Source: a virus. Taken from it: DNA of 39,938 bases. Within the stretch, counting starts at the first letter, position 1; the number at the start of each line of letters is the position of its first letter. The notes beneath the pieces are model-generated. The model saw nothing but the letters and a program-made list of their open reading frames with translations. It was not told the DNA's origin and made no database searches. Positions 4,186 through 39,938 of this stretch are shown here, one piece after another. The stretch lies in IMG/VR virus record IMGVR_UViG_3300045988_121860, positions 1-39,938 of that record; one strand, given 5' to 3'. Made by a program: the position numbers and the translations under genes.

Positions 4186-4192
4186 GTAGACC

Positions 4193-4222
4193 ACAGTAGG
4201 TGCCCATTTGGGCACCTGGCAA
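4193..4222 (-). promoter_or_regulatory. Early promoter with operator O1: -35 TTGCCA, 18-bp palindromic spacer GGTGCCCA-AA-TGGGCACC, -10 TACTGT
   Basis: Read on the minus strand: TTGCCA (4222-4217), operator 4216-4199 (perfect 8-2-8 inverted repeat), TACTGT (4198-4193). The ATG of the Cro-like gene is at 4185. Confidence 0.65.
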
Positions 4223-4267
4223 GTCGCTGGGAAACCCATCAGAACTTCGTTACCGTTCCGTCATCTT

Positions 4268-4284
4268 GGTGCCCAATGTGGCAC
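4268..4284. promoter_or_regulatory. Imperfect second operator-like site GGTGCCCAATGTGGCAC
   Basis: It shares the GGTGCCCA half-site with O1, and the second half is degenerate. It lies 10 nt upstream of the plus-strand HTH start codon. Confidence 0.4.
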
Positions 4285-5226: not shown

Positions 5227-6477
5227 TCATGGGGTTGGGGTGGAGGTGAGGCCGAGGCGGGGTGCGACGGCCTCAAGAGCTTGGCGGGCCTGATCCAGGT
5301 CGGCGTGCTGGTAGCCCATCGACGTGGTGATCGCGGTGTGGCCCATGATGGCGATGACGACGGTGGCGGGGACACCGGCGGCCATGAGGAGTGTCGCCGT
5401 CGAGTGGCGGGCCTCGTGCACGAGATAGTACCCCCCATCCTCCTTGTGGACGCCAGCGACGTCCTGGAGGGCGCGCCACGCCAGGCGGTCGTCCTTTTTT
5501 GACCATGGGCCGCCGTCGGGGCGGGGCCACACGAGCCCGTAGGGGGACTCGGGGCAGTGGTCCTGCCAAGCGGTCAGGGCCGCTGCCATCCACGGCACCA
5601 GCGGCAGGACGCGGGAGCCCGCCGCGGTTTTGACCGGCCCCCAGTAGTAGCCGTCCATCAGGTGCTCATAGGTGACGCCGTCGGTGCCGGTGATGTCCTC
5701 GGCGGCGGTCATCTCTACGAGCTGGCGGTCTACGGTGAGCGTGCCGGCGTCGAGGTCGATCCGGTCCCAGGTGAGTCCCAGGCACTCCCCCTGCCTCATC
5801 CCCTGGAGGAGGGCAGCGACCCACCGGGAGGCGTCCTGCACGCTAGCGAGGCGGCGGGCGCGCTGGGTCGGGCCACTGGTGGCGTCGGGCAGGGGAGGCC
5901 AGGTGTCGGGCTCGGTGGCGGCCTTCAGGAGGGTGGCGGCGCTAGCGGCGGGGATGGCCTGCCGCTTGGAGGCGGCGGCCTTGGGCTTGGGGGCGAGCAT
6001 GACGGAGTCGGGGATGCGGTGGCCCTCGACGATGGCGGCCCTGAGGACGCGGTGGAGGATCAGCCGGACGTAGCGGATCGACGTCGACGACTTCCCGTCG
6101 CGACGCATCGTGGCCTCCACCTTGCGTAGATCGGTGACGGTGAGGTCGGTGAGGCGGCGGTGCCCGATGGTGGGGGTGACCCACTTACCGAGGAGGGCGA
6201 GGTCGTTGCTGTAGGTGCGGGGGCGGGCGGTGCGCTTGTAGTCGACGGCCCAGGTGTCGATCCATGCCTTGAGGGTGGTGCGTGGGCTGACGACGGTGGA
6301 CTGCTGCTCAGCGAGGACCTCCCGGCGGATGGAGCGCAGGGCGCGCTTGGCCTCGGCCTCGGTGGCTCGCGCTCGGGTGATGCGGCGTCGGCCGCCGGAT
6401 GGCGTGTAGCCAGCCTCGACGCTGGCTATCCATTTGCCGTCTTTGCGCTGGTAGACGGTGCCTTCCCCGTATGCCAT
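5227..6477 (-). CDS. int: Tyrosine integrase
   Basis: 416 aa. The N-terminal arm-binding-type segment is GTVYQRKDGKWIASVEAGYTPSGGRRRITR. The C-terminal catalytic region is ...HEARHSTATLLMAAGVPATVVIAIMGHTAITTSMGYQH (R..HxxR..Y family pattern). Confidence 0.9.
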   Translation of the reverse strand: MAYGEGTVYQRKDGKWIASVEAGYTPSGGRRRITRARATEAEAKRALRSIRREVLAEQQSTVVSPRTTLKAWIDTWAVDYKRTARPRTYSNDLALLGKWVTPTIGHRRLTDLTVTDLRKVEATMRRDGKSSTSIRYVRLILHRVLRAAIVEGHRIPDSVMLAPKPKAAASKRQAIPAASAATLLKAATEPDTWPPLPDATSGPTQRARRLASVQDASRWVAALLQGMRQGECLGLTWDRIDLDAGTLTVDRQLVEMTAAEDITGTDGVTYEHLMDGYYWGPVKTAAGSRVLPLVPWMAAALTAWQDHCPESPYGLVWPRPDGGPWSKKDDRLAWRALQDVAGVHKEDGGYYLVHEARHSTATLLMAAGVPATVVIAIMGHTAITTSMGYQHADLDQARQALEAVAPRLGLTSTPTP

Positions 6478-14470: not shown

Positions 14471-17400
14471 TCAGTCGTTGCGTGAGACCTCGACGGCGAC
14501 ACGCTCGGCCTCGACGCGCATCCGGCCGACCAGTTCGCCGTCGACGTCGCGCACCTCCAGCACGCTCGGCGCGTTGCCGCCCTTGGACAGGAGGTCGTCG
14601 ATCTTCGACCACTGGCCGCCGGTGAAAACCGGCTCCGGGCGCCCGGTGGCGTTGAGGACCGTCGTCAACCCCGGCTGCAAAAGGCCCCCGCTGTCGAACT
14701 TGTAGAGCCCGGTGCTCGGGCTGCCGTAGATCGGGGTCTCACGGACCGGGATCCCGAAAGTCGGGGCCTCGACCATCATGCCGTTACCGGAGGCGATGGC
14801 GATGTGGTGCGCCGGAGCGCCCCAGAACAGGAGCGTGCCAGGCGTGTTGTAGGACCCGCCGGGCGTGCTGCCAGCCTGATAGCCGGCCGCCGTCAGGCGC
14901 GGAATCTGGGAGCCCATCTGGTGGGCCGCCCAGTACACGAGACCGGAGCAGTCGACGCCGGGCGGGATCGAGGATCCGCCCCACACGTAGGTTGCGCCGA
15001 TCGCCTTCCTCGCGGCGTTCACGATGTCGCTGGCGGCCATGGTCGCGGTCTTGCTCTTGAGCCACTGACCGAAACCGTCAACCCACTTGCCGGGCAGTGC
15101 GGCCGCCATGTCCTTGAAGAAGCCGGATCCGGGCAGGCCGCCCATGACGGCATTCATGGGGATGCGGATAAGGTTCTCGACCGCCCCGAGCGGGTCGGAG
15201 ATGATCGAGGCGACCGCATCCGCTGCACTGGAGAGCCAGCCGGTGGCCGCATCCCATCCGCTGCTGGCGGCTCCCTTGATCTTGTCCCAGATGCCGCCCT
15301 TGGCGAAAGCGGCGAATTTCGCGCCCGTGTCCCCGCCGGGGATGTGCGCCCCGCTACTCCCCCTGGCTGCGGCGTTCATCCGGTGGACGGCGGCGGGGCC
15401 GCCGACCGCCTTCACCCACTCCGGCCTCATGATGGCCTCACCGCCAGACAGGGCAATAGCGCCACCACCGTCAGGCGAGTAGAAATGGTAGATGTCCCGT
15501 CCCGGACTGTATCCGGGAAGGACACCACCGGTCGCGTACCCTGGGATTGGGCTGACGTCCGGGAGGCGGAGCGAGAGCCCCAGTTTCTCCGCAATGGAAT
15601 CGGCCGTCTTCTTAATACCATTCTTGTAAACGGTATTAATGATGAAGTTGATCGGCTTTGCAGCGATCCCCTTAACGGAGTCCCACACGGTCTGAATACC
15701 GGACTTCATGTTCTCGAAAGCCTTTTTGATATTCGTCGTGACCGTGTCGAAAATAGGCTTCAGAGTGTCCTGGAACCAAGATGCCACCGTGTTAATGGTG
15801 CTCTTGATGCCGTTCCAGACGGTCTTGATTCCGCCCCACAGGAGGTCGGCACCATTCTTGATGCCGTTCCACACCGTGGAGATGACGGGCTGCACATAGG
15901 TCTGGAACCACGAAACGACCGTGAGAACAGTCGACTTGATGCCATTCCAGATCGTGACGATGCCATTCCATAGGAACTGGGCGCCTACCTGAATCCCGGT
16001 CCACACTGCGGAGATGACCGGCATGACGTAGGCAGTGAAGAAATCTGCCACCACTTGCACGGCCGCCTTGATCCCATTCCAGATCGTGACGATGCCGGCC
16101 CACAGGAATTGTGCGCCCGCCTGAATCCCCGACCAGACAGCGGAGAGAACCGGCATGACGTAGGCGTTGAACCAGTCGACAGCGACGCCGACGGCAGCCT
16201 GAATCCCGGCCCACACAGCCTGAATCCCAACCCACAAATACTGTGCGCCGGTCACAATCCACGACCAGACCGTCGCCAGTGTTGGGGCCACGTAGGCCAT
16301 GAACCAATCCACAGCCAACTGGACCGCGACCTGAATCAGAGTCCAGACCACAATGAACGGAATGGATAATGCCCAAATCCCGACCTTGATAGCCGTCCAC
16401 ACGGCCTCAAAAACCGGCACCACATAGGTGCTGAACCAGTCCGCGACCGCCTGCACCGCAGTCTGAATACCCGACCAGACACCAGAAACGATGCTCACGA
16501 GCCCGTTCCAGATGCCCCCCAGAATGCCCACAGCGCCCGTGATAGCCGGCACCACGTAGGAGGTGAAGAACCCAGACACGGCGTTCCACACCGTATTCCA
16601 GGCCGAGCTGAGAGCATTCAGGGTCGCATCCCAGTATGGGGCAATCCAGTCCAGAAACTTGTGGAACTCCTCGGTGATAGCCGCCCACGCCTTCTTGCCT
16701 GTCTCCGTCTGGGTGAAAAACCACGCCAGGGCGGCGACGACGGCGAGAATCGCCGTCACGATGAGAATGTACGGGTTCGCATTCGAGACCACGTTGAAGG
16801 CCGCCTGGGCATTCTTCGCGGCATTGACAGCGCCTTCCATGGACTTGAGGCTGGTCACCCATTTCAGGATGCTGCCGGCCTGCTTGATCGCGTCAATCGT
16901 CGTCGTGGCCTTGTGGAGGCCATAGAAGGCGGTGGCCGCGGTGCCGACCGTGACGGCCAAGGTCGACAGCATCCCCTTGTGCTCAATACCCCAGGCCGTC
17001 GCCGTCAAGAGGGCGTCACCCACCTTGACGATGGCGTCACGCAGGCCCTCCAGGAAACTGGTCAGCGGGGAATTCGGGTCGAGCCCGAAAAGGGGCTTGT
17101 CCGTCTCCCCGGTGAAGATGATCTCCGTGAGCCCCTGCACCGACGGAATCAGCGTGTCATTGATCCACGTGCCGGCCTCGATAGCGGCGTCACGGACACT
17201 GAAGAGGAAATCCACCAGGGCAGAATCCTCTTCGAGGCCGAATAGCGAATCAGGTCCCTGATAGTCGCCGGAGAAAAGGATGCTAGCGACACCCTGTAGA
17301 CCGGGAACCAGGGTGCCGGTAATCCAGTCGCCGGCCGCACGGGCGGATTCGCCGATCTTGAAAAGGAAGTCGACAATACCGGAATCCTCTTCGAGGCCGA

Positions 17401-18361
17401 AGAGTTTATCGGACCCATCAAACTTCCCCTTGGAGAGAATGTCCCAGACGCCCTGAATCCCAGGGACAAGCTTGTCGTTGATCCACCCGAAAGCCGCCTC
17501 GGCTCCGGTGGCGACATTCCCCATGAAGTCAGTCAAGGCAGGCTTGATCTGGTCGACGATACCCATCGCACCAGACACAAGGGCGGCCTCAAGGTTCCCC
17601 CAGGCGCCCTCAATCGTCTTGGTCGACGTCGCCGCTTCCTTGGCGACATCCGTCATACCAAGATCCATCACCGCGGCATTGAATTCCTCGGCGGTGATCT
17701 CGCCCTTCTCCATCGCCTCACGGAAATTCCCCGTGTAAGCACCAGCCTCAAGGAGGGCCTGCTGGAGTTTCCCTGACGCGCCAGGAACCGCGTCAGCCAA
17801 CTGATTAAAGTTCTCGGTGGTGAGTTTCCCCTGACCGGCGGTCTGGGTAAGCACCATGCCGACGGACTTGAATGTCTCAGCATTTCCACCGGCGACGGCG
17901 TTCAGGTTACCGGCAGCCTCGGCGAGTTTGTCGTAGCCCTGGACATTGTTGGACGCCAGTTGGGCGGTGATCGACTGAATATCGGACAGGCCGTAGACGG
18001 TCTTGTCCGCGTATTCCTTCGTGCTCTTGGTGAGCCGGTCAACGTCGGCCGCGGACTTGCCCGCGAAGCCCAGGGTGTTCTTGAACTTGTTCGTCGCGTC
18101 GGAGGCGTCGATGGCCTGCTTCGCGATATCCGAGAAACCCGCAGCGAGTCCGACAGCGGACGTGACAGCCAGCGCCCCGGCCGCGATCTTCCCGACCTTC
18201 TGGAAAGCGCCACCCAGGCCGCTCGTGATCTTCCGCTCGGCCGGCCGAGTGTCGACGTCCCCCAGGGCCTCCTTGAGCTGCTGGGAGATCGCCTTGGTGG
18301 AGAGGGCAACCTGAATCCAGGCTGTGCCAATGGTGTGTCCCGTGGGCTTGCTACCAGCCAT
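14471..18361 (-). CDS. Tape measure protein with C-terminal NlpC/P60 peptidase domain (1296 aa)
   Basis: ORF 14471..18400 trimmed to Met14 (MAGSKPTGHTIG...) after GAGGAGG. It has three ~48-aa LFGLEEDS...VDFLF repeats (about 17060-17470) and about seven ~37-aa Trp-rich hydrophobic repeats (about 15690-16610). The NlpC/P60 segment is YVWGGSSIPPGVDCSGLVYWAAHQ...HHIAIASGNGMMVEAP (about 14723-15017). Confidence 0.9.
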   Translation of the reverse strand: MAGSKPTGHTIGTAWIQVALSTKAISQQLKEALGDVDTRPAERKITSGLGGAFQKVGKIAAGALAVTSAVGLAAGFSDIAKQAIDASDATNKFKNTLGFAGKSAADVDRLTKSTKEYADKTVYGLSDIQSITAQLASNNVQGYDKLAEAAGNLNAVAGGNAETFKSVGMVLTQTAGQGKLTTENFNQLADAVPGASGKLQQALLEAGAYTGNFREAMEKGEITAEEFNAAVMDLGMTDVAKEAATSTKTIEGAWGNLEAALVSGAMGIVDQIKPALTDFMGNVATGAEAAFGWINDKLVPGIQGVWDILSKGKFDGSDKLFGLEEDSGIVDFLFKIGESARAAGDWITGTLVPGLQGVASILFSGDYQGPDSLFGLEEDSALVDFLFSVRDAAIEAGTWINDTLIPSVQGLTEIIFTGETDKPLFGLDPNSPLTSFLEGLRDAIVKVGDALLTATAWGIEHKGMLSTLAVTVGTAATAFYGLHKATTTIDAIKQAGSILKWVTSLKSMEGAVNAAKNAQAAFNVVSNANPYILIVTAILAVVAALAWFFTQTETGKKAWAAITEEFHKFLDWIAPYWDATLNALSSAWNTVWNAVSGFFTSYVVPAITGAVGILGGIWNGLVSIVSGVWSGIQTAVQAVADWFSTYVVPVFEAVWTAIKVGIWALSIPFIVVWTLIQVAVQLAVDWFMAYVAPTLATVWSWIVTGAQYLWVGIQAVWAGIQAAVGVAVDWFNAYVMPVLSAVWSGIQAGAQFLWAGIVTIWNGIKAAVQVVADFFTAYVMPVISAVWTGIQVGAQFLWNGIVTIWNGIKSTVLTVVSWFQTYVQPVISTVWNGIKNGADLLWGGIKTVWNGIKSTINTVASWFQDTLKPIFDTVTTNIKKAFENMKSGIQTVWDSVKGIAAKPINFIINTVYKNGIKKTADSIAEKLGLSLRLPDVSPIPGYATGGVLPGYSPGRDIYHFYSPDGGGAIALSGGEAIMRPEWVKAVGGPAAVHRMNAAARGSSGAHIPGGDTGAKFAAFAKGGIWDKIKGAASSGWDAATGWLSSAADAVASIISDPLGAVENLIRIPMNAVMGGLPGSGFFKDMAAALPGKWVDGFGQWLKSKTATMAASDIVNAARKAIGATYVWGGSSIPPGVDCSGLVYWAAHQMGSQIPRLTAAGYQAGSTPGGSYNTPGTLLFWGAPAHHIAIASGNGMMVEAPTFGIPVRETPIYGSPSTGLYKFDSGGLLQPGLTTVLNATGRPEPVFTGGQWSKIDDLLSKGGNAPSVLEVRDVDGELVGRMRVEAERVAVEVSRND

Positions 18362-18427
18362 CCCGGCCCCTCCTCTATATGCTGGGAGGCCCCACAGCAC
18401 GCCACTGTGGGGCCTCCCTCGTGTTGG

Positions 18428-23974: not shown

Positions 23975-25445
23975 CGCTGGTCACCTCGACCGGGGCCTCA
24001 GTGGGCTCCTGCGGCTCCTGCTCGGGCGGGGTGGGCGTGGACGCCAGCAGACGATCCAGCACCCCACCAGCCTGCGCCCGCTTGATCTGCGACCGAATCC
24101 TGACGATCTGCTCAGCACTGTACCCCAGTTCCTCCAGGGCCACGTCAGTCTGAGCGAGCTCCGGAATCGCGCTGATCTGCTTGACCACGGCGTCGGACTG
24201 GCTGACGACACTCGGCATGGCCGGGTTGCGCCACCTCGTGGCGAGATTCCGCACCTCGTCATCCATCTCAGTCACGGGGATACCGTCACGGAGGCAGATG
24301 GCGTCCTGCACGATCCGGTTCAGGCCGTAGCCGATAGATCGCGTCGTGTTCTGCGCCTCGATGACCAGGTCCTCCTTGGCGGCGTAGATCGCCTCAGCCG
24401 AGGACGGGTTGTCCTGGACGATGCCGAGCGCGGAGATCGGCAGTGACGTCGCCGAAGCGAACTCGGCCGCGAGCGCCCTCTTCATCGCCAAGAACGGCTC
24501 CATGCTCTGCTGCGGGATCACCTGGAGATCGGGCTTGTCCCCGTCCTCGTCCTTCGGCAGCGATTTGAGGCGCCCCATGTACCAGGACCAGAGCGGAACC
24601 TTCTCGCCCTGGGCGTCCTGGAACATCGTCTCATCCGCCCCCAGCAGCAGCAGCGCCGGAGCCGCGTACAGGTCGCTACTGACTTCGGTGCGGAAGCCTG
24701 CCCTGACGACGCGGTCCGTGATGGACATGACCTCGCGGCTGATACGCGACCGCCCAAACGGGCGGCCGAGCGCAGGTCGGTACGGCAGAGGCTCCATAGG
24801 GACGCGCCCCAGGGAGTGGTCCATCCTCGCGACGGCCACCCACCCCCGGTCGCCCAGGGCCAGGCGAGTCACATGCTCAGCCGTCAGCAGCAGCATCGAC
24901 GTCGGCTTGCCGTTGTCATCCGCAGAGTCCACCAGCAGGCCAGCCTCCAGGCCACGACGACGCACATCCCACAGGCCAGTAGCCCACAGAGCGTCAGCAC
25001 CCGTCACAACCACGTCAGGGTCACCCGCAGCCGGATCACCCGGCAGGGCCACCACGAACGAGCAGCAGTAGGTGAGGGTCGCGTCCACAAGCTCGGGCAC
25101 GAGCAGGTCGAACCTGTTCTCGTGCAGCAGCGACATGGCCCCTAGGGGGTCCTCCTCGCCTGACGGCGACGTGACCCCATCCCACATGCAGCGGGACGCC
25201 AGCGACGTGACCGCCTTATCCGGCCAGCCACAGACGATATCCAGTTGGTCCCGCATGTAGGGCGGCACCGAGGCACCCAGGAACGCCACGTTCACCTGCA
25301 TGTCCCGGTACTGGCGGCGGAGAGCGTTTCGGGCGCGCTTGGCCTGCCACTGCTTGACCAGGCGGGCCATGAGGGCGGCGTCATCCTCAGCCAGGCCGAC
25401 GACGTCGGTCGGCACCGGAGAGTAGTAGGCCCACTGGTCCATCAC
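23958..25445 (-). CDS. Portal protein (495 aa)
   Basis: ORF track. The size, the position after terL (ATGA overlap) and SPP1 gp6-like features support the call. Confidence 0.85.
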   Translation of the reverse strand: MMDQWAYYSPVPTDVVGLAEDDAALMARLVKQWQAKRARNALRRQYRDMQVNVAFLGASVPPYMRDQLDIVCGWPDKAVTSLASRCMWDGVTSPSGEEDPLGAMSLLHENRFDLLVPELVDATLTYCCSFVVALPGDPAAGDPDVVVTGADALWATGLWDVRRRGLEAGLLVDSADDNGKPTSMLLLTAEHVTRLALGDRGWVAVARMDHSLGRVPMEPLPYRPALGRPFGRSRISREVMSITDRVVRAGFRTEVSSDLYAAPALLLLGADETMFQDAQGEKVPLWSWYMGRLKSLPKDEDGDKPDLQVIPQQSMEPFLAMKRALAAEFASATSLPISALGIVQDNPSSAEAIYAAKEDLVIEAQNTTRSIGYGLNRIVQDAICLRDGIPVTEMDDEVRNLATRWRNPAMPSVVSQSDAVVKQISAIPELAQTDVALEELGYSAEQIVRIRSQIKRAQAGGVLDRLLASTPTPPEQEPQEPTEAPVEVTSGDDAG

Positions 25446-26917
25446 ATCACCACCCCCACGCGGGCACCGGCCAGTTCGCGCGGCCTGCGCTTCGTTGTCT
25501 TCGTGGCCCAGTGGGCCAGTGTCAGTGCGTCCATCCCGGCTGAGGTCATCCCCTCCGGGGCGGTCCAGCCGAACCCGCCGGATGCGCCGATCTTCCGGCG
25601 GGAGATGACGGCGGCCTCAGCCTCAAGCTCGGCGTCGTCCGGGTGCGACAGGGTGCGGTCCCGGATCGCGGCGTCCATCATCGCGTGCGCGGCGATGACC
25701 TGATCCGTCGTCGGCGTCCAAATCACCTTCGGGCTGAATCCTGCGGCGCGGAGGCGGTCAACCAGGTCGCCCGCGCCGGACTTGCCGTCGACGACGATCT
25801 GCGCCCACCGGTCCCGGTGCTCGGTCAGGTAGTCCAGGATCCAGTGGACGCCCTCACCCATGTTGCGCACCCCCTGCGAGGTGCACAGCTGAGCATAGAC
25901 AGCCTCACTCTTGCGCTCAGGCTTGCGGCCAGCGCGAGCCAGGGCCACCGTAGAGCCGTCCACCGAGAACCTCACGGCCGCGCACCAGCGCAGCCCGCTC
26001 GGGGCGTCGTCCACCGTCAGGGCGTTCCACGCCTCGCGGCCGATTGCCTGAGAGGCGACCTCCGGGTCCCAGATTCCCAGGCCCTCGCGACGGAACGACT
26101 CTGGCCCCAGTTGGCGCTTCATCCGCAGGATCGCCGACTCCGGCGTCCGATGCGGGAAACTCGGGTTCGCCTTCCGCCACTGCTTCCTGTCGTCCGGGTC
26201 CGCATCGTCATCCGCGCCGACCTCGACATACAGGCCATCACTCATCTCACCCGCGAGCGCTTGCTTCCTGAACGTCGTGAACGCCTCAGACGGGTCCGTC
26301 GGGCGCGGCGGCGTACCCAACCTCAGGATCAGTGGGTTCGGGGCGGTATTGACCGCGGGCACCATGTCATCCAGCGCCCGCTGGCCGAGGATCTGCGCCT
26401 CGTCAAAGACGATGATGTCGACGCCGGCGAAGCCACGGCCGAAGCCGCCCTCGCGGGCGCCGAACAGGATGCGGCTCCCGTTGGTGAACCGGATCTGCTG
26501 CTGGCCGTTCGCCTGCCTTGGTCGGCCGTCGATGTACGGGGCGATCTCCGGCTTCAGGGCGAGCCCCTGCATCGACGCGAACGTCTCATCCGCCGTCCTC
26601 GTGCGGTGTGCCGTCCAGAGGACGAAGAGCCCTTCGTTCAGGGTGCACAGGGCGAAGATCATCGCCCCGAAGGTAAAAGTTTTGCCCGCTTGACGGCAGA
26701 TCGAGACCTGCACGCCGTCGATGCTGGCCGCGTAGAGCCCACTCTTCCGCTTCGCCAGGATCGCGCGCCCCAGCCCGTCCTGCCAGCGGTCGAAGGTCAG
26801 GCCGAAGCGCTTCGCCCGGTCGCGGACGGCCGGCCAGCCCGTGGACGTGATGCCCTCGGGCAGGATGAGGTGCTTGGCGATGTCGGACAGGCGCGGCTCA
26901 GATGTCCCCGAGCCCAT
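25442..26917 (-). CDS. terL: Terminase large subunit (491 aa)
   Basis: ORF 25442..27058 trimmed to Met48 (MGSGTSEPRLSDIAKHLILPEG...). It has a Walker-type segment (VSICRQAGKTF) and DIIVFDEAQ, and its start overlaps the terS 3' end. Confidence 0.85.
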   Translation of the reverse strand: MGSGTSEPRLSDIAKHLILPEGITSTGWPAVRDRAKRFGLTFDRWQDGLGRAILAKRKSGLYAASIDGVQVSICRQAGKTFTFGAMIFALCTLNEGLFVLWTAHRTRTADETFASMQGLALKPEIAPYIDGRPRQANGQQQIRFTNGSRILFGAREGGFGRGFAGVDIIVFDEAQILGQRALDDMVPAVNTAPNPLILRLGTPPRPTDPSEAFTTFRKQALAGEMSDGLYVEVGADDDADPDDRKQWRKANPSFPHRTPESAILRMKRQLGPESFRREGLGIWDPEVASQAIGREAWNALTVDDAPSGLRWCAAVRFSVDGSTVALARAGRKPERKSEAVYAQLCTSQGVRNMGEGVHWILDYLTEHRDRWAQIVVDGKSGAGDLVDRLRAAGFSPKVIWTPTTDQVIAAHAMMDAAIRDRTLSHPDDAELEAEAAVISRRKIGASGGFGWTAPEGMTSAGMDALTLAHWATKTTKRRPRELAGARVGVVM

Positions 26918-27194
26918 CTTCGTCTTCCGTTGCCTCGGTCGCCGTCTGCCGCTCATGCTCCTCGCGAGCCAGGTCGATCTCCCGGATGGTCTTGTCCACC
27001 TCCAGGAGGCGACGGGATAGGGCGGCCAGGTCGCGGGCAGGGGTGCTCGGGTCATCAATAGACGCAGCGAGGCGACGGCGAAGCGTCACCATCACGTCCC
27101 TGCTGTCCCCGTGCTCCGTCGCATCCAAGACGCTCCCAGGGGCCTGAGGAGCCGTCTCGTCGTCCCTCACGGCACGGAGTCTCGCGGCACTCAT
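26898..27194 (-). CDS. terS: Terminase small subunit candidate (98 aa)
   Basis: ORF 26898..27200 with the ATG at 27194 after AAGGGGG. LRRRLAASIDDPSTPARDLAALSRRLLEVDKTIREID resembles actinophage small terminases. It lies between HNH and terL. Confidence 0.6.
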   Translation of the reverse strand: MSAARLRAVRDDETAPQAPGSVLDATEHGDSRDVMVTLRRRLAASIDDPSTPARDLAALSRRLLEVDKTIREIDLAREEHERQTATEATEDEDGLGDI

Positions 27195-27259
27195 AAGCAC
27201 CCCCTTGGGAAAAAACAGTGGGGAGAGATGCCGCTATACCCACGGGGGGGCGAGAATGG

Positions 27260-27290
27260 CCGGGCGGGGGGTATATCCCCCCTGTCCCGG
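27260..27290. other. G/C-run palindrome in the HNH-terS gap (candidate cos/terminase recognition element)
   Basis: CCGGGC-GGGGGG-TATAT-CCCCCC-TGTCCCGG with a perfect core GGGGGGTATATCCCCCC at 27266-27282. A G7 run lies at 27244-27250. Confidence 0.3.
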
Positions 27291-27306
27291 TGTTTCTGTG
27301 GCTACT

Positions 27307-27627
27307 CTACCATGTTTCGTGGTCGGTTGTTGGTTTGATTCTGGCCGTTTGGTTGCGTTTCCGTTTTGGTGGCCGCACTTTTCTGCCGTTTCCTTTGTGT
27401 TGGTTGCATTTTCGGCAGATGATTTGAATATTGTCTAATGAGTCGTTTCCGCCTCGACTGTGAGGCACGATGTGGTCGGCCTCAGGGCTACTAGGCAGTA
27501 GGCTAGCGTCCCAGGCGAGGCGGACGTGGCAGAGCGGACAGTGCTCTAGTCCTGCCGCGCGCGCGCTGCGCTTGGCCGCTGCTGCGTTGTGGAGCCAGCG
27601 TGTGGTGCCGGTGCGTGAGGTGGTCAC
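27307..27627 (-). CDS. HNH endonuclease (106 aa), packaging-associated
   Basis: ORF 27307..27732 trimmed to the GTG at 27627, 5 nt after GAGGAGG. CPLCHVRL...ADHIVPHSRGGNDSLDNIQIICRKCNQHKGN is a canonical HNH motif. It lies immediately upstream of terS/terL. Confidence 0.85.
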   Translation of the reverse strand: MTTSRTGTTRWLHNAAAAKRSARAAGLEHCPLCHVRLAWDASLLPSSPEADHIVPHSRGGNDSLDNIQIICRKCNQHKGNGRKVRPPKRKRNQTARIKPTTDHETW

Positions 27628-27653
27628 GTCGTCCTCCTCGCGCGCGCGTGCGC

Positions 27654-27694
27654 ACGCGGCCCGCGTCACGCTGCTGTGCGTGAGCGGGCCGCGT
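27654..27694 (-). other. Very stable hairpin in the late-operon leader
   Basis: The arm ACGCGGCCCGCGTCACGC (27654-27671) pairs with GCGTGAGCGGGCCGCGT (27678-27694): 17 bp with one bulge and a 6-nt loop. It lies directly upstream of the HNH SD. Confidence 0.5.
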
Positions 27695-27737
27695 CGCTTC
27701 TCCCCATTCCCTTCTCCCCAGAAGGGTAGCAACAGTG

Positions 27738-27768
27738 GAGCCCAGCAGTCTTGTGGACGGCTGGGCTC
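27738..27768. other. Second hairpin in the late-operon leader
   Basis: GAGCCCAGC (27738-27746) pairs with GCTGGGCTC (27760-27768). An inner GTC/GAC pair extends the stem. Confidence 0.45.
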
Positions 27769-28047
27769 TGACAGTTTGCCTATGTTCGTATGATGCGTGT
27801 TTCAGTGGCGATGTGCAAGTGGTGGTCGTGCCTGGCGTGTTGCGGTTTGGTTACGGGGTCGGGGTGGTTTGTTGTGGGGTGCCCCCGTCATTCATCCCCT
27901 GCCCCTGCGTTGATATCCCTGCCCCCCTTGTTTAGTGGGGGTGCCCTTGTTTCGCGAGGGGGTGGGTGTCCATGATGGGCGCCCCCTTGCTGTAGCCCCG
28001 CCCCCTTTAGTGTGGCCCACCCCACTGTTTGCATACACCCCCTGGGC

Positions 28048-28077
28048 TTGCACCCATTCGGTATGCAGGCATACACT
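28048..28077 (+). promoter_or_regulatory. Cassette promoter PA: -35 TTGCAC, 18-bp spacer containing palindrome GTATGC-AG-GCATAC, -10 TACACT
   Basis: TTGCAC at 28048-28053, palindrome at 28061-28074, TACACT at 28072-28077. AAAGGAA and the ATG at 28114 follow. About 80% identical to 29265-29330. Confidence 0.6.
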
Positions 28078-28113
28078 AGAGCCATCGGAACAGACAGAAA
28101 GGAACTCCCCAGA

Positions 28114-28368
28114 ATGTCCGCCACCATCGCAGCCGCCACCTACCTGGCCCGCTACTACGGCCCCGAGGCCGTCACCGTCTACTCCCTCCCCGACGTCGAA
28201 GGTGAGGCTATCGATGTCCACTGGGCCGGCGGACTCGCCACAATCCACCAAGTGAACAGCGCCGTGTGGCGCGTGAACTGCGCCCTCGCCCACCAGGACG
28301 TGAACCTCCTCCGCCTGCCGAAGACGGTCGAAGAGATGATCCTCGCCGCCAAGGCGACCACCAACTGA
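28114..28368 (+). CDS. Cassette protein 1, hypothetical (84 aa)
   Basis: The ATG at 28114 is in frame with ORF 28012..28368 and is preceded by AAAGGAA. No family recognised. Confidence 0.65.
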   Translation: MSATIAAATYLARYYGPEAVTVYSLPDVEGEAIDVHWAGGLATIHQVNSAVWRVNCALAHQDVNLLRLPKTVEEMILAAKATTN

Positions 28369-28379
28369 CCGCCCCCGTT

Positions 28380-28402
28380 GCCCGCCCCGAAATGGGGTGG
28401 GC
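28380..28402 (+). other. GC hairpin between cassette genes 1 and 2
   Basis: GCCCGCCCC-gaaat-GGGGTGGGC, 9 bp with one G-T pair and no U-tract. Confidence 0.4.
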
Positions 28403-28423
28403 GCCCCCAGAAAGGAAACCACC

Positions 28424-28750
28424 ATGGCCCGCTACAACTGGAACCCTGCCACCGCCTCCGACTACCCCGGCGCTGTCCTGGTCGCTACCGCTGACGATGG
28501 CGCGGTGATCCGCCTCCACCTGGATGCCTTCGACGACGAGGTTGAGGCGGCCTTCGTGATCGAGACGCACCCCGGCCGGTTCGTGACGACGGAGGAGTCG
28601 TCTTGCTGGCCGGCGGTGGAGCGCTACGTCCCGCGCGAGGAGTGGACGCCTGAGATGTACGGCAGCCTAGACGTCCCGTCCATGCGCCACCCCGACCCGG
28701 CGGTGACGGAGGCGATCGACGTCTACCGCCGGGCGATGCTGAACGACTGA
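28424..28750 (+). CDS. Cassette protein 2, strongly acidic hypothetical (108 aa)
   Basis: The ATG at 28424 follows GAAAGGAAAC and is in frame with ORF 28397..28750. By my count there are 20 Asp+Glu against 8 Arg+Lys. Confidence 0.65.
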   Translation: MARYNWNPATASDYPGAVLVATADDGAVIRLHLDAFDDEVEAAFVIETHPGRFVTTEESSCWPAVERYVPREEWTPEMYGSLDVPSMRHPDPAVTEAIDVYRRAMLND

Positions 28751-28760
28751 ACACCCACCT

Positions 28761-28786
28761 GCCCGGCCCTACCGTGGGGGCCGGGC
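28761..28786 (+). terminator. Stem-loop after cassette gene 2
   Basis: GCCCGGCCC-taccgtgg-GGGCCGGGC, a perfect 9-bp stem with no clear U-tract. Confidence 0.4.
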
Positions 28787-28805
28787 CTGACCTAGAGAGG
28801 AGAAG

Positions 28806-29045
28806 ATGATGAGTGCTGAGACTGAGCGCGCATTGGAGGAGGCTGTGATGGCGCACGTGGCCTCCGAAGGAGATGGTGACATGGTTGGCGCGTGGCTGCT
28901 GCTCGCACAGACGGAGCGGCTCACAGATGCGGAGGAGGGGCGTAGCGCCTATCACTCCCACCTGCGGGGGAACTCGTTCACGATGGTGGGCATCTGCGAC
29001 GCCTGGAAGCACTCGGTTATGGCGAGCACGGTGAGGGACTCATGA
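28806..29045 (+). CDS. Cassette protein 3, acidic hypothetical (79 aa)
   Basis: ORF track. GAGAGGAGAAG lies upstream, and the stop overlaps the start of gene 4 (ATGA). Confidence 0.65.
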   Translation: MMSAETERALEEAVMAHVASEGDGDMVGAWLLLAQTERLTDAEEGRSAYHSHLRGNSFTMVGICDAWKHSVMASTVRDS

Positions 29046-29260
29046 ACAACCAGGAGGTCCCGAGCTTGTTGGAGTTGGACCGCCTGCGCTGTGAGGTGGA
29101 GGCGGTTCGTGAGGTGCTGGATGAGATTGAGAACCAGCGTCGGGCCGCGGCGGTGGCTGCGGTGCGTGCCGGGAAGGGTAAGGCTCCGGTGGCGCTCGCG
29201 GCGGGGGTGACTCGGCAGACGTTGGACCGCTGGCTTGGTGTGTGGCAGCGCACATCTTGA
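29042..29260 (+). CDS. Cassette protein 4: small coiled-coil + C-terminal HTH protein (72 aa), candidate cassette regulator
   Basis: ORF track. KAPVALAAGVTRQTLDRWLGVW has an HTH pattern, and the N-terminal LLELDRLRCEVEAVREVLDEIENQRR is coiled-coil-like. Confidence 0.6.
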   Translation: MNNQEVPSLLELDRLRCEVEAVREVLDEIENQRRAAAVAAVRAGKGKAPVALAAGVTRQTLDRWLGVWQRTS

Positions 29261-29264
29261 GAGG

Positions 29265-29294
29265 TTGACCCCATTCAGTATGAGAGCATACACT
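29265..29294 (+). promoter_or_regulatory. Cassette promoter PB: -35 TTGACC, 18-bp spacer with GTATGA-GA-GCATAC, -10 TACACT
   Basis: TTGACC at 29265-29270, palindrome at 29278-29291, TACACT at 29289-29294. This is a duplicate of PA including the 5'UTR up to the ATG at 29328. Confidence 0.6.
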
Positions 29295-29327
29295 TAAGCC
29301 ATCGGGAACGAAGAAAGGAACCCCAAA

Positions 29328-29582
29328 ATGAGCACCATCCGCAAGGCCCTCAACACCATCAAGAACACCGACTACGCCGCCGCTGGCCAGATCAAGGTCA
29401 TCGACCTCGTGGATGGCACGATCGCCATCGGCCCCCGCGGCCAGTACGTCCAGGAGAGCCGCGACCTCGGCCTCATCATCAACGGCCGCGTGGCCGCCTG
29501 GCCGGACGATGACCCCACCGACGCTGACCTCCGCGCCGCCGTCGCCGCCCTCCTCGGCTACGACCCTGAGACCGCCAACTGA
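29328..29582 (+). CDS. Cassette protein 5, hypothetical (84 aa)
   Basis: ORF track. AAAGGAA lies upstream. It is the same length as protein 1, with a similar first few codons. Confidence 0.65.
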   Translation: MSTIRKALNTIKNTDYAAAGQIKVIDLVDGTIAIGPRGQYVQESRDLGLIINGRVAAWPDDDPTDADLRAAVAALLGYDPETAN

Positions 29583-29670
29583 CCCGCCTACCCGCCCGGA
29601 TGGTCGCAGCGGGGGTTCGGCTCCCCCGCCGGGCACGACCCCTAACCCAACTACCCCAAAGAGAACAGTC

Positions 29671-29898
29671 ATGAACCTGTACCCCACACGCAACGAAGCC
29701 ATCGAGCACGAGATTCGCGACGTGCTACGCCAGAGCGAGGACGCCACCGGCCCGATCGATGACGCCTTCGACATTGACGCCATCGCCGACGAGACCATCA
29801 CCATGTTCATCACCAAGGGCAGGATGATCACCTACTGCCTGAGCCCCGACATCTACCCAAGCAAGTTCTGGGAGATCGTCGAGAAGCACACCCGCTGA
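29671..29898 (+). CDS. Cassette protein 6, acidic hypothetical (75 aa)
   Basis: The ATG at 29671 (MNLYPTRNEAIEHEIRD...) is in frame with ORF 29413..29898, whose longer N-terminus is Pro/Ser/Thr shadow sequence. Confidence 0.6.
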   Translation: MNLYPTRNEAIEHEIRDVLRQSEDATGPIDDAFDIDAIADETITMFITKGRMITYCLSPDIYPSKFWEIVEKHTR

Positions 29899-29909
29899 CC
29901 GAATACGGG

Positions 29910-29938
29910 AGGCGCCCCACCTGGCTGGTGGGGCGCCT
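29910..29938. terminator. Bidirectional terminator between the cassette and the end of the early operon
   Basis: AGGCGCCCCACC-tggc-TGGTGGGGCGCCT, followed by TTCGTC on the plus strand. It lies between convergent stops at 29898 and 29942. Confidence 0.7.
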
Positions 29939-29941
29939 TCG

Positions 29942-30196
29942 TCATGTTCGTAGGACCAGTAGCGGCCCTTCCTCTCTCGGGTGGTCCGGTAGCCTCATGA
30001 TGGCGCATCCAGGACCGAAGGGGACGGCCTTGGCTGGCAGCCTGCCGGGCCGGTTGATGGCGATGGCGACGCGCGCGATCGCGCCTGCTAGGCGGTCCCA
30101 CTCGGCGTCCTCGGTGTCACGCTTGGCTTGCTCCTCGGCGCTCGCGGCCACCCAGGGCGCTTCGGCCCATGGGTGCGCGATCTCGACGTCGGTCAT
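29942..30196 (-). CDS. Hypothetical protein (84 aa), last early-operon gene
   Basis: ORF track. ATGA overlap with the upstream stop at 30193-30196. Confidence 0.6.
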   Translation of the reverse strand: MTDVEIAHPWAEAPWVAASAEEQAKRDTEDAEWDRLAGAIARVAIAINRPGRLPAKAVPFGPGCAIMRLPDHPREEGPLLVLRT

Positions 30197-30408
30197 TTCA
30201 TGTCTCCGATTGCGTCTCGGGCTTCGGTGAGCATGCCGATCACCTTCCCTATGGCCTCGGTGGCGTCGGCGGTTGGTAGGCCGGCTGCGAGGCCGCCGAT
30301 GGCGGCGGCGTGCCCCATCATGGCGGCGGTGAGGCTTCCCTTCATGGATGCCTTGACGGCTTCCTCGGCGACGGCGGCTAGCGCCGTCTGGATCATCTCT
30401 GGTGTCAT
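30193..30408 (-). CDS. Hypothetical Ala-rich protein (71 aa)
   Basis: The ATG at 30408 (MTPEMIQTALAAVAEE...) is in frame with ORF 30193..30870 and forms an ATGA overlap with the stop of 30405..31172. Confidence 0.55.
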   Translation of the reverse strand: MTPEMIQTALAAVAEEAVKASMKGSLTAAMMGHAAAIGGLAAGLPTADATEAIGKVIGMLTEARDAIGDMK

Positions 30409-37781: not shown

Positions 37782-38042
37782 TTAGAGGCCGTCGACGAGA
37801 GTGTCAGAGTCGACGTAGAGGAGGTTGGCGAGCGAGTCGAGGAGCCGCGCCCGGTTGGTGGCGTGCCGGCCGATCGCACCCCAGGGGAGGTTGGCGTCGA
37901 TCCGGCCGGCCCCGCGCCACTGCCGGTCCCGCTCATCGAGGGCCGCAGCCTCCGAGTCCTGGTAGTCGGCGCAGGCGCACAGGAACTCGGCTGCGTCGGT
38001 GACGTCGACGCCATCGCCGCCGATGTGGTCGAGGCGGCTCAC
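37782..38042 (-). CDS. Hypothetical protein (86 aa)
   Basis: ORF 37782..38057 trimmed to the GTG at 38042, which forms a GTGA overlap with the stop of 38039..38632. Confidence 0.5.
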   Translation of the reverse strand: MSRLDHIGGDGVDVTDAAEFLCACADYQDSEAAALDERDRQWRGAGRIDANLPWGAIGRHATNRARLLDSLANLLYVDSDTLVDGL

Positions 38043-38632
38043 AGGTCCGCCACCCATGCCATCCAGGCGGTGGTCTCCTCGGCGAGGTCATTGGAGGAGA
38101 GGGTGTCGTCCCTGGTGGGGGTAGCCCACACGCCGCCGTCCTCGTCGTCGATGCGGGTCCAAGATCGGCCGGACTCGTCACGGACGACGGTGCCGACGGG
38201 GAGGACCTGGAGGTCGTAGGAGTACATGCGGGCCTGACCGCAGGTGGAGTTGGTGACGGCGCAGAGGATGGACTGGAGGCGGGCGATCTGGTCGGCGTGG
38301 ATGCTGGCGGCATTGTCGGCGGCCGTCTTCCACTGGTTCCGGTAGAGGTCCACCTGGCCCTTGAGTTGGTCGATGGTGTCGCGCTGTTCGCGGATGGTCT
38401 GGGCGAGGGCCTGCTCGCTGAGGGTGGGCTCCGCAGCCTCGGCGACCTGCTGGGCCTTGCGCTGGTCGGCGGCGAGGTAGAGGAGGCTGATCGCCCCGAT
38501 GGCGTCTCCGCCTGCCCGGTCGAGGAGGTCGCGGGCTTTGGTGGCGTAGGTGGCGGCCGCGTCGTCGCGGGCTTGGGCGCAGGTGGCGAAGTCGCCGCGC
38601 ACCGGCTTGGGGTAGAGGTTTTCGATCCTCAT
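38039..38632 (-). CDS. Hypothetical protein (197 aa), first gene behind the second operator-controlled promoter
   Basis: ORF track. AAAGGAC lies upstream. The central region is coiled-coil-like. No family recognised. Confidence 0.65.
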   Translation of the reverse strand: MRIENLYPKPVRGDFATCAQARDDAAATYATKARDLLDRAGGDAIGAISLLYLAADQRKAQQVAEAAEPTLSEQALAQTIREQRDTIDQLKGQVDLYRNQWKTAADNAASIHADQIARLQSILCAVTNSTCGQARMYSYDLQVLPVGTVVRDESGRSWTRIDDEDGGVWATPTRDDTLSSNDLAEETTAWMAWVADL

Positions 38633-38685: not shown

Positions 38686-38729
38686 TTGCCCACGTGGACA
38701 ACCTTAGGTGCCCATTTGGGCACCGTCAA
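38686..38729 (-). promoter_or_regulatory. Second early promoter with the same operator: -35 TTGACG, spacer = GTGCCCAAATGGGCACC, -10 TAAGGT, plus flanking imperfect operator TTGTCCACGTGGGCAA
   Basis: On the minus strand: TTGACG at 38729-38724, perfect palindrome at 38724-38707 (identical 18-mer to 4199-4216), TAAGGT at 38706-38701. A second 6-2-6 site TGCCCA-CG-TGGACA lies at 38687-38700, centred 22 bp away. Confidence 0.6.
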
Positions 38730-38855: not shown

Positions 38856-39539
38856 TTAGGCCGCTCTAGGGGCCTTACGTGCACGATTCGGGGCACTTCC
38901 GGCCCCACCGTCACCCCCGAGGTGCGACGAACGCGCCAGAGCGGCCAGCACCTCACGAGCCCGAGCCGCCCCATCGCCCGACGACTCAGGCGACGGTGCA
39001 GCCGTCAACTCGGGCACCGGGCGGGCCGCCGGGAGCGCGTCAGCCCACGGCACACGCCCCACGCCCAGGGCGTGATCCATCCGGGACAGCACCTCCGGCA
39101 GCGGCGTCGCCGGCTCCAACTCGGCCACCTGAACCGCCTGGGCCAGCGCCGCACGCCCGTGCCGGTCCGCTTCGACGTCGTCGACGCCGTTGCCGATCGC
39201 CCGCAGGAAGCCCCGCAGGTACGCCGACTGCTCGAAGCCGCTGCGGCCCTCCGTTGGCAGGCTGTGGCGCTCGCGCCAGGCCCGGATGCGCTCGCCACGG
39301 ACGGCCTTCGCGGCCCGGTTCACGTGCTGCGGTTTCGCCGCCCCGTAGGTCTCGACGTTGCCGGACGCGACGCGGCGCACCGCCTCCGCGAGCACCTCGT
39401 CGGTCATGTCCTGGTCCAGGAGCGTCATCCAGGCGCGGATGCGTCGCTTACCACCCTCGGCGTCGACGATGCCGGGCAACATGCCGGCGTCCACGAGGAT
39501 GCCGATCGCCAGAGAAACCCCTGTCGCCGTAGCCATCAC
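38856..39539 (-). CDS. Replication-module partner protein (227 aa), helicase-loader position
   Basis: ORF track. The GTG/ATG start overlaps the initiator stop (GTGA at 39536-39539). No Walker motif was seen, so the functional assignment rests on position only. Confidence 0.55.
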   Translation of the reverse strand: MMATATGVSLAIGILVDAGMLPGIVDAEGGKRRIRAWMTLLDQDMTDEVLAEAVRRVASGNVETYGAAKPQHVNRAAKAVRGERIRAWRERHSLPTEGRSGFEQSAYLRGFLRAIGNGVDDVEADRHGRAALAQAVQVAELEPATPLPEVLSRMDHALGVGRVPWADALPAARPVPELTAAPSPESSGDGAARAREVLAALARSSHLGGDGGAGSAPNRARKAPRAA

Positions 39540-39938
39540 AGGCCCTCCTTCGCGAACTGCTCGGCCAGGTCGTAGAACACCTGCCCGCCCTGTGGTCGCC
39601 CCTGGGGGCGTTGGGCTTGGAGGCGGAGGGTGTCGAACTTTTGGCGGAGCTTGGGGACGCTGAGGACGTTGGCGCGCCAGAAGTCGTTGCCCTCAGCCCA
39701 GTCGATGATGCGGGTGATCTCTTCGACGGTGCGGTCGTCTCGGTCGATCATGAGGCGTGCCTGCGTGCGCCAGGCGGCGGTGACGCGTGGGGCTCGTCCG
39801 GTGCGACGCTGGACGCTCGCGGCCATGGCGTCGCAGACGGCGTCGACGTCGGGGCGGGGGTCTTCGACGGCGTGCAGATCGACGTCGTCGATCGCTTCAC
39901 TGTTCCCCTGTTCCCCTGTTCCCCTGTTCCCCTGTTCC
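39536..39938 (-). CDS. Replication initiator, C-terminal part (continues from 1..507; 39884-39938 duplicates 1-55)
   Basis: ORF 39536..39826 stays open upstream to the window end in the same frame (…EAIDDVDLHAVEDPRPDVDAVCDAMAASVQ…). The C-terminal WAEGNDFWRANVLSVPKLRQKFDTLRLQ resembles the DnaD/replisome-organiser C-terminal motif. Confidence 0.7.
   Translation of the reverse strand, partial: EQGNRGTGEQGNSEAIDDVDLHAVEDPRPDVDAVCDAMAASVQRRTGRAPRVTAAWRTQARLMIDRDDRTVEEITRIIDWAEGNDFWRANVLSVPKLRQKFDTLRLQAQRPQGRPQGGQVFYDLAEQFAKEGL
39884..39938. repeat. 55-nt exact copy of 1..55 (circular-closure overlap)
   Basis: GTCGTCGATCGCTTCAC + 4 x TGTTCCCC + TGTTCC is identical at both ends of the window. 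Confidence 0.95.

Follow-up and report, generated by a model that had tools for sequence, protein, structure and literature searches.

The DNA analyzed here, hereafter the window, comprises positions 1 to 39,938 of the IMG/VR virus record IMGVR_UViG_3300045988_121860. Two of its segments, 28048-28116 and 29265-29330, are in the reading that we favor host-type promoters that carry an operator for the product of the nearby gene g4. We consider it reasonably probable that g4 autoregulates in this way a terminator-bounded, moron-like island of cargo genes, and the two segments are probably paralogous copies of one module, each heading one of the two transcription units of this single accessory-gene island. 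These elements form a previously undescribed, predicted promoter-operator-regulator family that organizes an accessory-gene island in uncultured oral actinophages. The concept introduces no new principle, since morons, operons under autorepression and mosaic junctions in conserved regulatory DNA are familiar themes. The analysis provides a concrete proposal for a regulatory circuit, including promoter, operator, leader and candidate regulator, in uncultured oral, probably Actinomyces, phages. No cultured relative was found to carry the module, and no description of transcription signals was found for this phage family. The anatomy of the module, its conservation by position, its association with g4 and the diversity of the cargo are established by the sequence comparisons; initiation of transcription at the two sites, binding by g4, repression in preference to activation, and expression in the lysogen are what we infer.

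Anatomy and conservation of the duplicated module

The initial annotation described the two segments as a duplicated module, about 80% identical, with -35 hexamers TTGCAC and TTGACC, a TACACT -10 hexamer in both, and 18-nt spacers. All these features were recovered by computation. A global alignment of the segments showed 58 identical positions in 71 columns (82%), and their local alignment score was 39, while random 66-mers taken from the window (n = 3,000) reached a mean of 6.8 and a maximum of 15. A 36-nt degenerate core, CCCATTCRGTATGNNNGCATACACTNNAGCCATCGG, was found in the window only at the two module sites, with zero occurrences expected in shuffled sequences, and a search of the window with a module profile (nhmmer) produced no third copy. 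Both copies show the SigA/sigma-70-type pattern of TTGnnn and TAnnnT separated by 16-19 nt. Both leaders end in AGAAAGGAA, which is complementary to the 3′-end of the actinobacterial 16S rRNA, i.e., an extended Shine-Dalgarno sequence, and both are unstructured, since their folding is no better than that of shuffled sequences (z about 0). It is very probable that the segments are promoters followed by ribosome-binding leaders. The module was also considered as an RNA or structural element and this possibility was rejected: no Rfam family was found in 27200-30400 at E <= 1, the leaders fold like shuffled sequences, and the dyad as a DNA hairpin is negligible, with only -1.9 and -2.8 kcal/mol.

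The dyad overlaps the promoter. Its right arm, CATAC, runs into the -10 hexamer, and the left arm, GTATG, is the exact reverse complement. The dyad spans about -23 to -10 and by position arithmetic is centered at about -16.5. Only two such dyads exist in the 39.9-kb genome. Two DNA-pattern scans of viral contigs identified 18 loci, and the g4 protein (family F01) was used as the query in a search that identified 31 viral loci and about 20 metagenome loci. The protein was chosen as the query because it avoids selecting on the DNA motif. The resulting module set included 72 non-redundant instances, which correspond to 68 unique 49-mers, from about 50 related viral and metagenome contigs (L numbers below). 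Among the 68 unique copies the TTG of the -35 hexamer, GTATG, CATACACT, TACACT, and the AG and CA of the AGCCAT start region are invariant or nearly so. In contrast, information content is about 0 bits at the spacer positions on each side of GTATG, and the dyad center (four bases) is essentially random. Spacer bases are normally not read by RNA polymerase. The palindrome had been initially described as a 6-2-6 structure, GTATGC-AG-GCATAC, perfect in copy A (28061-74) and with one mismatch in copy B (29278-91). These two sequences are as described, but the conserved unit is shorter. The sixth positions are complementary in 29 of the 68 unique copies, compared to 32.5 expected from shuffling, and this chance-level pairing next to invariant GTATG and CATAC indicates that the selected dyad is 5-4-5, GTATG-N4-CATAC. 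An inverted repeat over the core promoter that is kept beyond the needs of the promoter is expected of the operator of a dimeric helix-turn-helix autorepressor. The dyad has this property, and we regard it as quite likely a protein-binding site. An extra half-site was also proposed at 28031-28038. Its sequence, GCATACAC, does occur there a third time, but this position is variable in the relatives, where it is occupied by GTGTGCAC, GTATACAC, GCATGCAC, ACACTCAC and others.

The two copies appear to have been separate for a long time. The identity between copies A and B was 0.71 within genomes and 0.78 between genomes. That it is not raised within genomes argues for an old duplication without general homogenization, and concerted evolution of the two copies was rejected on the same numbers, with contig L042 as a possible exception. 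In L042 the copy located after F01 (3073 versus 4222) is nearly identical to the middle copy and unlike the typical class B, which suggests that gene conversion between copies may occasionally take place. Inspection of the aligned copies showed that homology between contigs continues through AGAAAGGAA and stops a few bases short of the start codon.

Variants of the module inform the location of the transcription start site. In five contigs an extra, third copy reads TACACT-ATAGCC-ATG, with the ATG located 7 nt past TACACT, and opens a conserved 133-amino acid (aa) open reading frame that has a strong codon-position GC bias (0.71/0.40/0.9) and specifies a very acidic protein. Leaderless mRNAs are common in Actinobacteria. 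The position of this ATG is that of a leaderless transcript, and SigA-type promoters are expected to start 6-8 nt past the -10. This gives indirect support to the assignment of the -10 hexamer and of the start site, and places the predicted +1 of both window copies at the A of AGCC-A. A homologue of the 133-aa protein is found in L094 (2094-2465) behind a long-leader form of the module. In the long-leader variants the predicted +1 is also the first base of a hairpin, AUCGGG-AACGAA-CCCGAU. In distant lineages a hairpin is found at a comparable place and its G-C stem is longer, as in the P0127 lineage (UCGGGGG...CCCCCGA). This hairpin at +1 may be a stabilizer of the mRNA 5′-end.

The island and its candidate regulator

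The minus strand holds almost all genes of the window, the exception being a block of six small plus-strand genes, g1 to g6, in which copy A heads g1 and copy B heads g5. The island (28048-29938) is bordered by the HNH/terminase end on one side and by the tail of the early operon on the other, and has the opposite orientation to the phage operons. The general layout deduced from the related contigs is module, variable cargo, optionally followed by F03 (g2) and F02 (g3), then F01 (g4), and in many cases a further module with F04 (g5) and additional genes. Layouts vary by contig: F01 directly follows F03 in L005, L009 and L015, and follows F17 in L012, and these islands lack g3. The claim that the genes behind the two copies differ was confirmed, as g1 and g5, both 84 aa long, gave no BLASTP alignment and are unrelated. 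The proposal that the module stands ahead of swapped cargo was supported by a search of related contigs, in which at least eight unrelated first-gene families were found behind module copies. At least five of them are class A first genes: a 34-38-aa membrane peptide (long leader), a GNAT-like 109-aa protein, a 98-aa protein, the g1 family, and the leaderless 133-aa protein. The class B first gene is usually of the g5 family, with a 94-aa protein and a g6-like fam6 gene as exceptions; in L075 and L076 the fam6 gene lies directly behind a module copy. The GNAT-like F15 is found behind copy B in L049 and behind copy A elsewhere. Comparison of the island proteins to PHROGs, Pfam, PADLOC and NCBIfam produced nothing but weak helix-turn-helix (HTH) matches for g4, and in the cargo of the other lineages nothing was recognized beyond a GNAT match below threshold, a ROS/MucR-like zinc finger and a winged-HTH protein.

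A single protein family, F01, occurs in all islands. Its gene invariably closes the first unit, and the start of this gene overlaps the stop of the preceding one. Wherever the DNA upstream of F01 is long enough, a module is found in it at a distance of 0.5-1.4 kb, and many loci have a second module directly after the F01 stop codon; some also have a third. Copy B is present exactly where F01 ends in ...GVWQRTS* and absent where it ends in ...GDWTRKR(KE)*, as seen in the window tail (29240-29260) and in the homologues. This correspondence points to one mosaic junction inside the last codons of the regulator gene. The AlphaFold2 (AF2) model of g4 (predicted local distance difference test, pLDDT, 92) shows one long helix at residues 9-42, which precedes an HTH made up of two helices (47-54 and 58-65). 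When the F01 profile was compared to PDB sequences, RelI (chain 9sdc_A) was matched with E = 1.4e-3 over 41 residues, covering the coiled-coil and HTH part. Foldseek did not recover RelI when queried with the structure model of g4.

The F01 family is narrow, as shown by a profile search of 1.84 billion representative proteins, which also retrieved divergent lineages with about 45-60% identity. These lineages have the same architecture, each with a dyad of its own that is of one type throughout an island (Table 1). In the P0128 lineage the change between copies is symmetric, TATGAT-C-ATCATA versus TATGAC-C-GTCATA. All divergent lineages have a TTGnnn-17/18-TAnnnT promoter with a -10 that is overlapped by the dyad; the spacer is 17 nt in L049 and L075. 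The island adjoins the integrase gene in L094 and the terminase gene in L098 and in the window. Since F01 and the dyad promoters are retained when the position of the island has changed, the promoter, operator and regulator move as a unit. The initial annotation had proposed a second dedicated regulator. This is plausible, and the presence of F01 in all islands together with the lineage-specific dyads allows it to be named, as the candidate cassette HTH protein g4; we consider that g4 is probably the protein that binds the dyad. An observation made in one of these lineages concerns L049, where a sequence resembling the 3′-half of a tRNA (GGTTCGAATCCC, minus strand) lies at 3200-3270, directly upstream of the first module of the divergent island. 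It could represent what is left of an attachment site, or a phage tRNA.

In the proposed circuit each module would consist of a housekeeping-sigma (SigA-type) promoter, TTGnnn-18 nt-TACACT, an operator, GTATG-N4-CATAC, with its right arm fused to the -10, a conserved discriminator and start region, AGCC-A(+1), and a short, unstructured leader with the extended Shine-Dalgarno sequence. The host RNA polymerase would fire both promoters without a phage factor. The g4 protein would dimerize through its long helix, and the C-terminal HTH would bind the dyad and occlude the -10 region. Because of the location of the dyad within the promoter, binding of g4 should repress, and repression seems somewhat easier to accept than activation. 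PA (copy A; g1-g4) would then be negatively autoregulated and PB (copy B; g5-g6) would be under the same control, resulting in a self-contained, dosage-limited platform. The conservation between phages of the module and of the g3-g4 end makes them usable as homology arms for the exchange of cargo.

A mechanism of the MerR type was also considered. In MerR-type promoters the dyad is centered in an over-long spacer of 19-20 bp, and in the regulator a winged HTH at the N-terminus precedes a coiled coil. MerR-type activation was rejected: the spacer here is 18 nt (17 in L049 and L075) and the dyad, centered at about -16.5, merges into the -10. A MerR-type regulator was rejected as well, since the domain order of F01 is reversed, helix then HTH.

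A broader interpretation, which we consider rather improbable, is that the module and F01 are a mobile, self-regulated "expression platform", i.e., a miniature regulon of one to four identical promoter-operator-leader units served by one regulator. It would move between phage backbones, adjoining cos in some and the integrase gene in others, and act as a hotspot for accessory cargo exchanged by recombination at the conserved leader. F01 might release the whole cargo set on a signal. If correct, the platform would be comparable in function to an integron-like array of cargo that has no integrase. The cargo includes small membrane, very acidic and GNAT-like proteins and may therefore include exclusion, defense or anti-defense functions. 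The island is a site where accessory genes are kept and swapped, and as such an obvious place to search for lysogenic-conversion, exclusion or anti-defense functions. The module, with its host-type promoter, 14-bp operator and strong ribosome-binding leader, together with the 72-aa regulator, could become a genetic tool for Actinomyces and related high-GC bacteria.

Alternative explanations and comparison with known systems

Several observations weigh against the reading that we favor. The matches of g4 to Pfam HTH_28 and HTH_23 are below the cut-off, which makes the HTH assignment weak, and the best Foldseek match of its model, Fis, is not significant (E > 0.5). RelI, the closest protein of known structure by sequence profile, has no demonstrated DNA binding, and RelSI has no known operator (PMC13284704). 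The members of the main F01 family are 74-93% identical, and their co-occurrence with the module could be plain synteny. The cross-lineage argument is based on six lineages, several of them represented by a single contig. The spacing of the TATG-CATA core varies from 3 to 6 bp between lineages, and the relationship between recognition helix and half-site is not simple, since TPQTLYRW is found with both GTATATG-N3 (L049) and TATGA-N4 (L064). Compared to the E. coli consensus, TTGACA, the -35 hexamer in copy A agrees at only three of six positions by our own count, and for this reason copy A was absent from the consensus scan in which copy B matched at 9 of 12 positions. Finally, the GC content of the island, 65.3%, is near that of the genome, 66.9%, so it does not resemble recently imported DNA (the modules alone are AT-richer, with 46-52% GC).

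In one alternative explanation, in line with the weakness of the DNA-binding assignment for g4, the segments would still act as promoters and contain an operator, the protein that occupies the dyad would be one of the immunity or early HTH proteins of the phage or a host regulator, and g4 would have a different role. The phage does have further HTH proteins, such as the Cro/CI-like repressor, and RelI-like proteins are not known to bind DNA (PMC13284704). This explanation is nonetheless improbable. The presumed immunity operators are located elsewhere and are unrelated in sequence, the dyad accompanies F01 onto different backbones and genome positions, F01 is the sole constant protein of the islands, and a conserved host factor would not explain a lineage-specific dyad that is shared within an island. 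The resemblance of F01 to RelI can also be read in another way, as that of an antitoxin. The genes g3 and g4 would then be a toxin-first toxin-antitoxin or addiction pair, like RelS-RelI, MqsRA or HigBA, in which g4 autorepresses via the dyad, and the duplicated promoter would be an extension of this autoregulation to neighboring cargo. The overlap between the g3 stop and the g4 start (ATGA), the like coupling in other lineages, the sizes of g3 (79 aa) and g4 (72 aa), which mirror those of RelS (78) and RelI (85), and the profile match over the coiled-coil and HTH part are all compatible with such a pair. We consider it quite improbable because g3 resembles RelS, RelE or BrnT neither in sequence nor in fold, and is acidic and, by a low-confidence prediction, helical; it is missing in the contigs mentioned above in which F03 or F17 precedes F01; the upstream partner differs completely by lineage (a 227-aa ROS/MucR-like, a 195-aa acidic, or a 96-aa protein); and PADLOC gave no match. 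A profile search with g3 found no PDB sequence at E <= 10, and its AF2 model, helical with a pLDDT of 67 and too uncertain for use, had no significant fold match.

The dyad could also have no protein partner at all and reflect promoter architecture, a recombination or packaging site near cos, or a recent duplication. Copy A is indeed within about 300 bp of the HNH/terminase region, the probable cos region, and the -10 hexamer largely dictates the right arm of the dyad. However, copy B and, in other lineages, the third and fourth copies are internal to the island and distant from cos, and GTATG is invariant in the 68 unique copies while the adjacent spacer is free to vary. Symmetric changes keep the dyad across lineages and between copies, and a recent duplication is argued against by window copies that are just 82% identical and by the lower A-B identity within genomes than between them. 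For these reasons we see a dyad without a protein partner as very improbable, and regulation by g4 as the preferred reading.

Several known systems share features with the island. Phage morons are independent accessory transcription units consisting of promoter, gene and terminator (the Juhala/Hendrix concept; PMC3594210). Like them, the island is a self-contained unit that runs counter to the phage operons, with its own predicted host-type promoter(s) and terminator; it consists of small genes, and the set of genes differs among phages that are otherwise alike. Unlike morons, it does not deviate in GC content from the genome, it has six genes with two (elsewhere up to four) copies of one promoter, and, in contrast to classical morons, it appears to carry its own predicted regulator and operator. 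The mycobacterial ClpC2 is an autorepressor that recognizes repeated pseudo-palindromes, CGTCAAC-n5-GTTGACG, overlapping the -35/-10 of a promoter with a leaderless transcript (PMC10030653). The module shares with ClpC2 and with lambda-type Cro/CI operators an inverted repeat over the -10 at more than one promoter and the location of the candidate regulator inside the controlled operon, and with ClpC2 the actinobacterial setting and some predicted leaderless variants. It differs from both in that the operator sequence is unrelated, the candidate is a 72-aa helix-then-HTH protein without a sensor domain, and no link to the lysis-lysogeny switch is evident.

RelS-RelI (Rv2663-Rv2664; PDB 9SDC) is a Mycobacterium tuberculosis toxin-antitoxin pair from an Actinobacteria-specific family (PMC13284704). 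The likeness is in two small overlapping genes of which the second specifies an HTH-like coiled-coil protein, with a borderline F01-RelI similarity; the differences are that g3 has no RelE/BrnT-like features and is replaceable or absent, and that F01 operons, unlike RelSI, have conserved promoter dyads. Cluster K mycobacteriophages have start-associated sequences (SAS) with a 13-bp consensus, GGGATAGGAGCCC, at many scattered sites per genome, and extended SAS (ESAS), which have 17-bp inverted repeats with a variable spacer; the function of these elements was inferred from position only (PMC3203893). The module resembles them as a repeated, conserved ribosome-binding-region sequence just upstream of the starts of different gene families, and ESAS also in the presence of inverted repeats. 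A search of the window for the SAS consensus gave no matches with up to two mismatches, and, unlike SAS/ESAS, the module is a complete predicted promoter, operator and leader found in two copies in one island.

Genome setting and other features

The window closes as a circle, with bases 1-55 recurring at 39884-39938 as a terminal overlap, and is the genome of a temperate, siphovirus-like phage. In addition to the genes listed in Table 1 it codes for a RecE-like exonuclease, SSB, RusA and a portal protein. No tRNA was found in the window. The nearest portal proteins, with 52% identity, are those of Propionibacterium freudenreichii phages, and no cultured phage is close. Cultured phages showed no DNA similarity to the window except for one 44-nt hairpin, and a tblastn search found no F01 homologue in them. 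In a one-genome-per-species collection the module DNA pattern had 0 matches and the F01 profile retrieved only an unrelated Nitrospirales HTH protein. The many related contigs are from metagenome and virome collections. A g4 homologue, WP_315210511.1, is deposited as an Actinomyces massiliensis protein, and since the one-genome-per-species searches gave no relative, the attribution of the host depends on this single protein. The host is probably Actinomyces.

Table 1. Positions of the module copies, genes and other features in the window, and of module variants and dyads in related contigs
Feature	Position	Strand	Details
Module copy A	28048..28113	+	class A; adjoins the cos/HNH region
Copy A, -35	28048-53		TTGCAC; 18-nt spacer
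Copy A, -10	28072-77		TACACT
Copy A, dyad	28061-65 / 28070-74		GTATG / CATAC
Copy A, predicted +1	28084		A; 30-nt leader
Copy A, Shine-Dalgarno sequence in leader	28096-28104		AGAAAGGAA
Module copy B	29265..29327	+	class B; starts 4 nt past the g4 stop codon
Copy B, -35	29265-70		TTGACC; 18-nt spacer
Copy B, -10	29289-94		TACACT
Copy B, dyad	29278-82 / 29287-91		GTATG / CATAC
Copy B, predicted +1	29301		A; 27-nt leader
Copy B, Shine-Dalgarno sequence in leader	29312-20		AGAAAGGAA
g1 (F05 / fam4)	28114..28368	+	84 aa; first gene behind copy A; coding signal by GC at third codon positions (GC3)
g2 (F03)	28424..28750	+	108 aa
g3 (F02)	28806..29045	+	79 aa, acidic; stop overlaps g4 start (ATGA)
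g4 (F01)	29042..29260	+	72 aa; weak HTH matches; proposed binder of the dyad
g5 (F04 / fam0)	29328..29582	+	84 aa; first gene behind copy B
g6 (F12)	29671..29898	+	75 aa; fam6-like by eye
Hairpin AGGCGCCCCACC-TGGCT-GGTGGGGCGCCT	29910..29938	.	perfect 12 bp, GC-rich
Cro/CI-like repressor	3964-4239		HTH; matches repressor family phrog_4583
Integrase	5227-6477		
TerL (large terminase subunit)	25442-27058		
TerS (small terminase subunit)	26898-27200		
HNH endonuclease	27307-27732		
Leaderless module copies	L032 2623; L042 2603; L073 443; L074 98; L082 123		
Long-leader module copies	L034 778; L035 2859; L037 148; L049 about 3496; L075 164; L094 about 2000 and 3400		
Dyad, P0127 lineage (L075, L094, L095)			GTATGAT-C-ATCATAC; 2 copies
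Dyad, P0128 lineage (L072, L097, L098)			TATGA-N3-TCATA in three of 3-4 copies; the other with one arm mismatch
Dyad, P0122 lineage (L049)			GTATATG-TGT-CATATAC; 2 copies
Dyad, P0135 lineage (L096)			GTATG-CTGGT-CATAC (GTATG-N5-CATAC)
Dyad, L064			TATGA-TTTG-TCATA (TATGA-N4-TCATA)

The hairpin at the end of the island falls between two stop codons, that of g6 (29898) and that of the convergent gene 29942-30196, and folds as single-stranded DNA with -18.6 kcal/mol (z = -5.9). A T-tract-dependent scan did not call it; it is probably a bidirectional terminator that closes the island. A different 44-nt stretch (29594-29637), between g5 and g6, includes the hairpin GCGGGGG-TTCGGCT-CCCCCGC and is the one mentioned above as similar to cultured phages: four Gordonia phages (Cafasso, Aleemily, ObLaDi and Morgana) have intergenic DNA that matches it with 93% identity, and Caudovirus D_HF2_7 matches it with 89% identity. 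The Cafasso counterpart lies, unannotated, between genes 154 and 153. The stretch is not a tRNA and belongs to no Rfam family, and it may be a shared terminator-like or mobile mini-element.

At its other end the island is separated from the packaging genes by a 315-bp non-coding stretch with 61.9% GC and GCCCCC-rich motifs, which is likely a cos or late-promoter region. It contains a 13-bp inverted repeat, GAGCCCAGCAGTC-N5-GACGGCTGGGCTC, at 27738-27768, directly upstream of the start of the HNH gene.

The initial annotation compared the geometry of the dyad with that of an immunity operator, TGCCCA-N2-TGGGCA. The parallel holds for the geometry alone, as the sequence is unrelated and the sites are elsewhere in the window. 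A perfect TGCCCATTTGGGCA is present at 4201 and at 38709, with imperfect partners nearby (4201-4214, 4270-4283 and 38687-38722). These form two clusters, located at the 5′-end of the Cro/CI-like gene and upstream of 38039-38632, and are probably the immunity operators named in that annotation.

Other repeats were found far from the island. Six tandem CTGTTCCC units occupy positions 17-63, and repeats of about 21 nt containing TCGCGA occupy 67-142 and 268-343. This region (1-343 / 39884-39938) adjoins a gene for a DnaD/O-like replication-initiator fragment (39536-39826), a proximity that makes the repeats candidate origin iterons. Inside a 1309-aa tape-measure-like gene (14471-18400), at least five units of a repeat with a period of 132 nt and 60-81% identity extend over 15795-16441.

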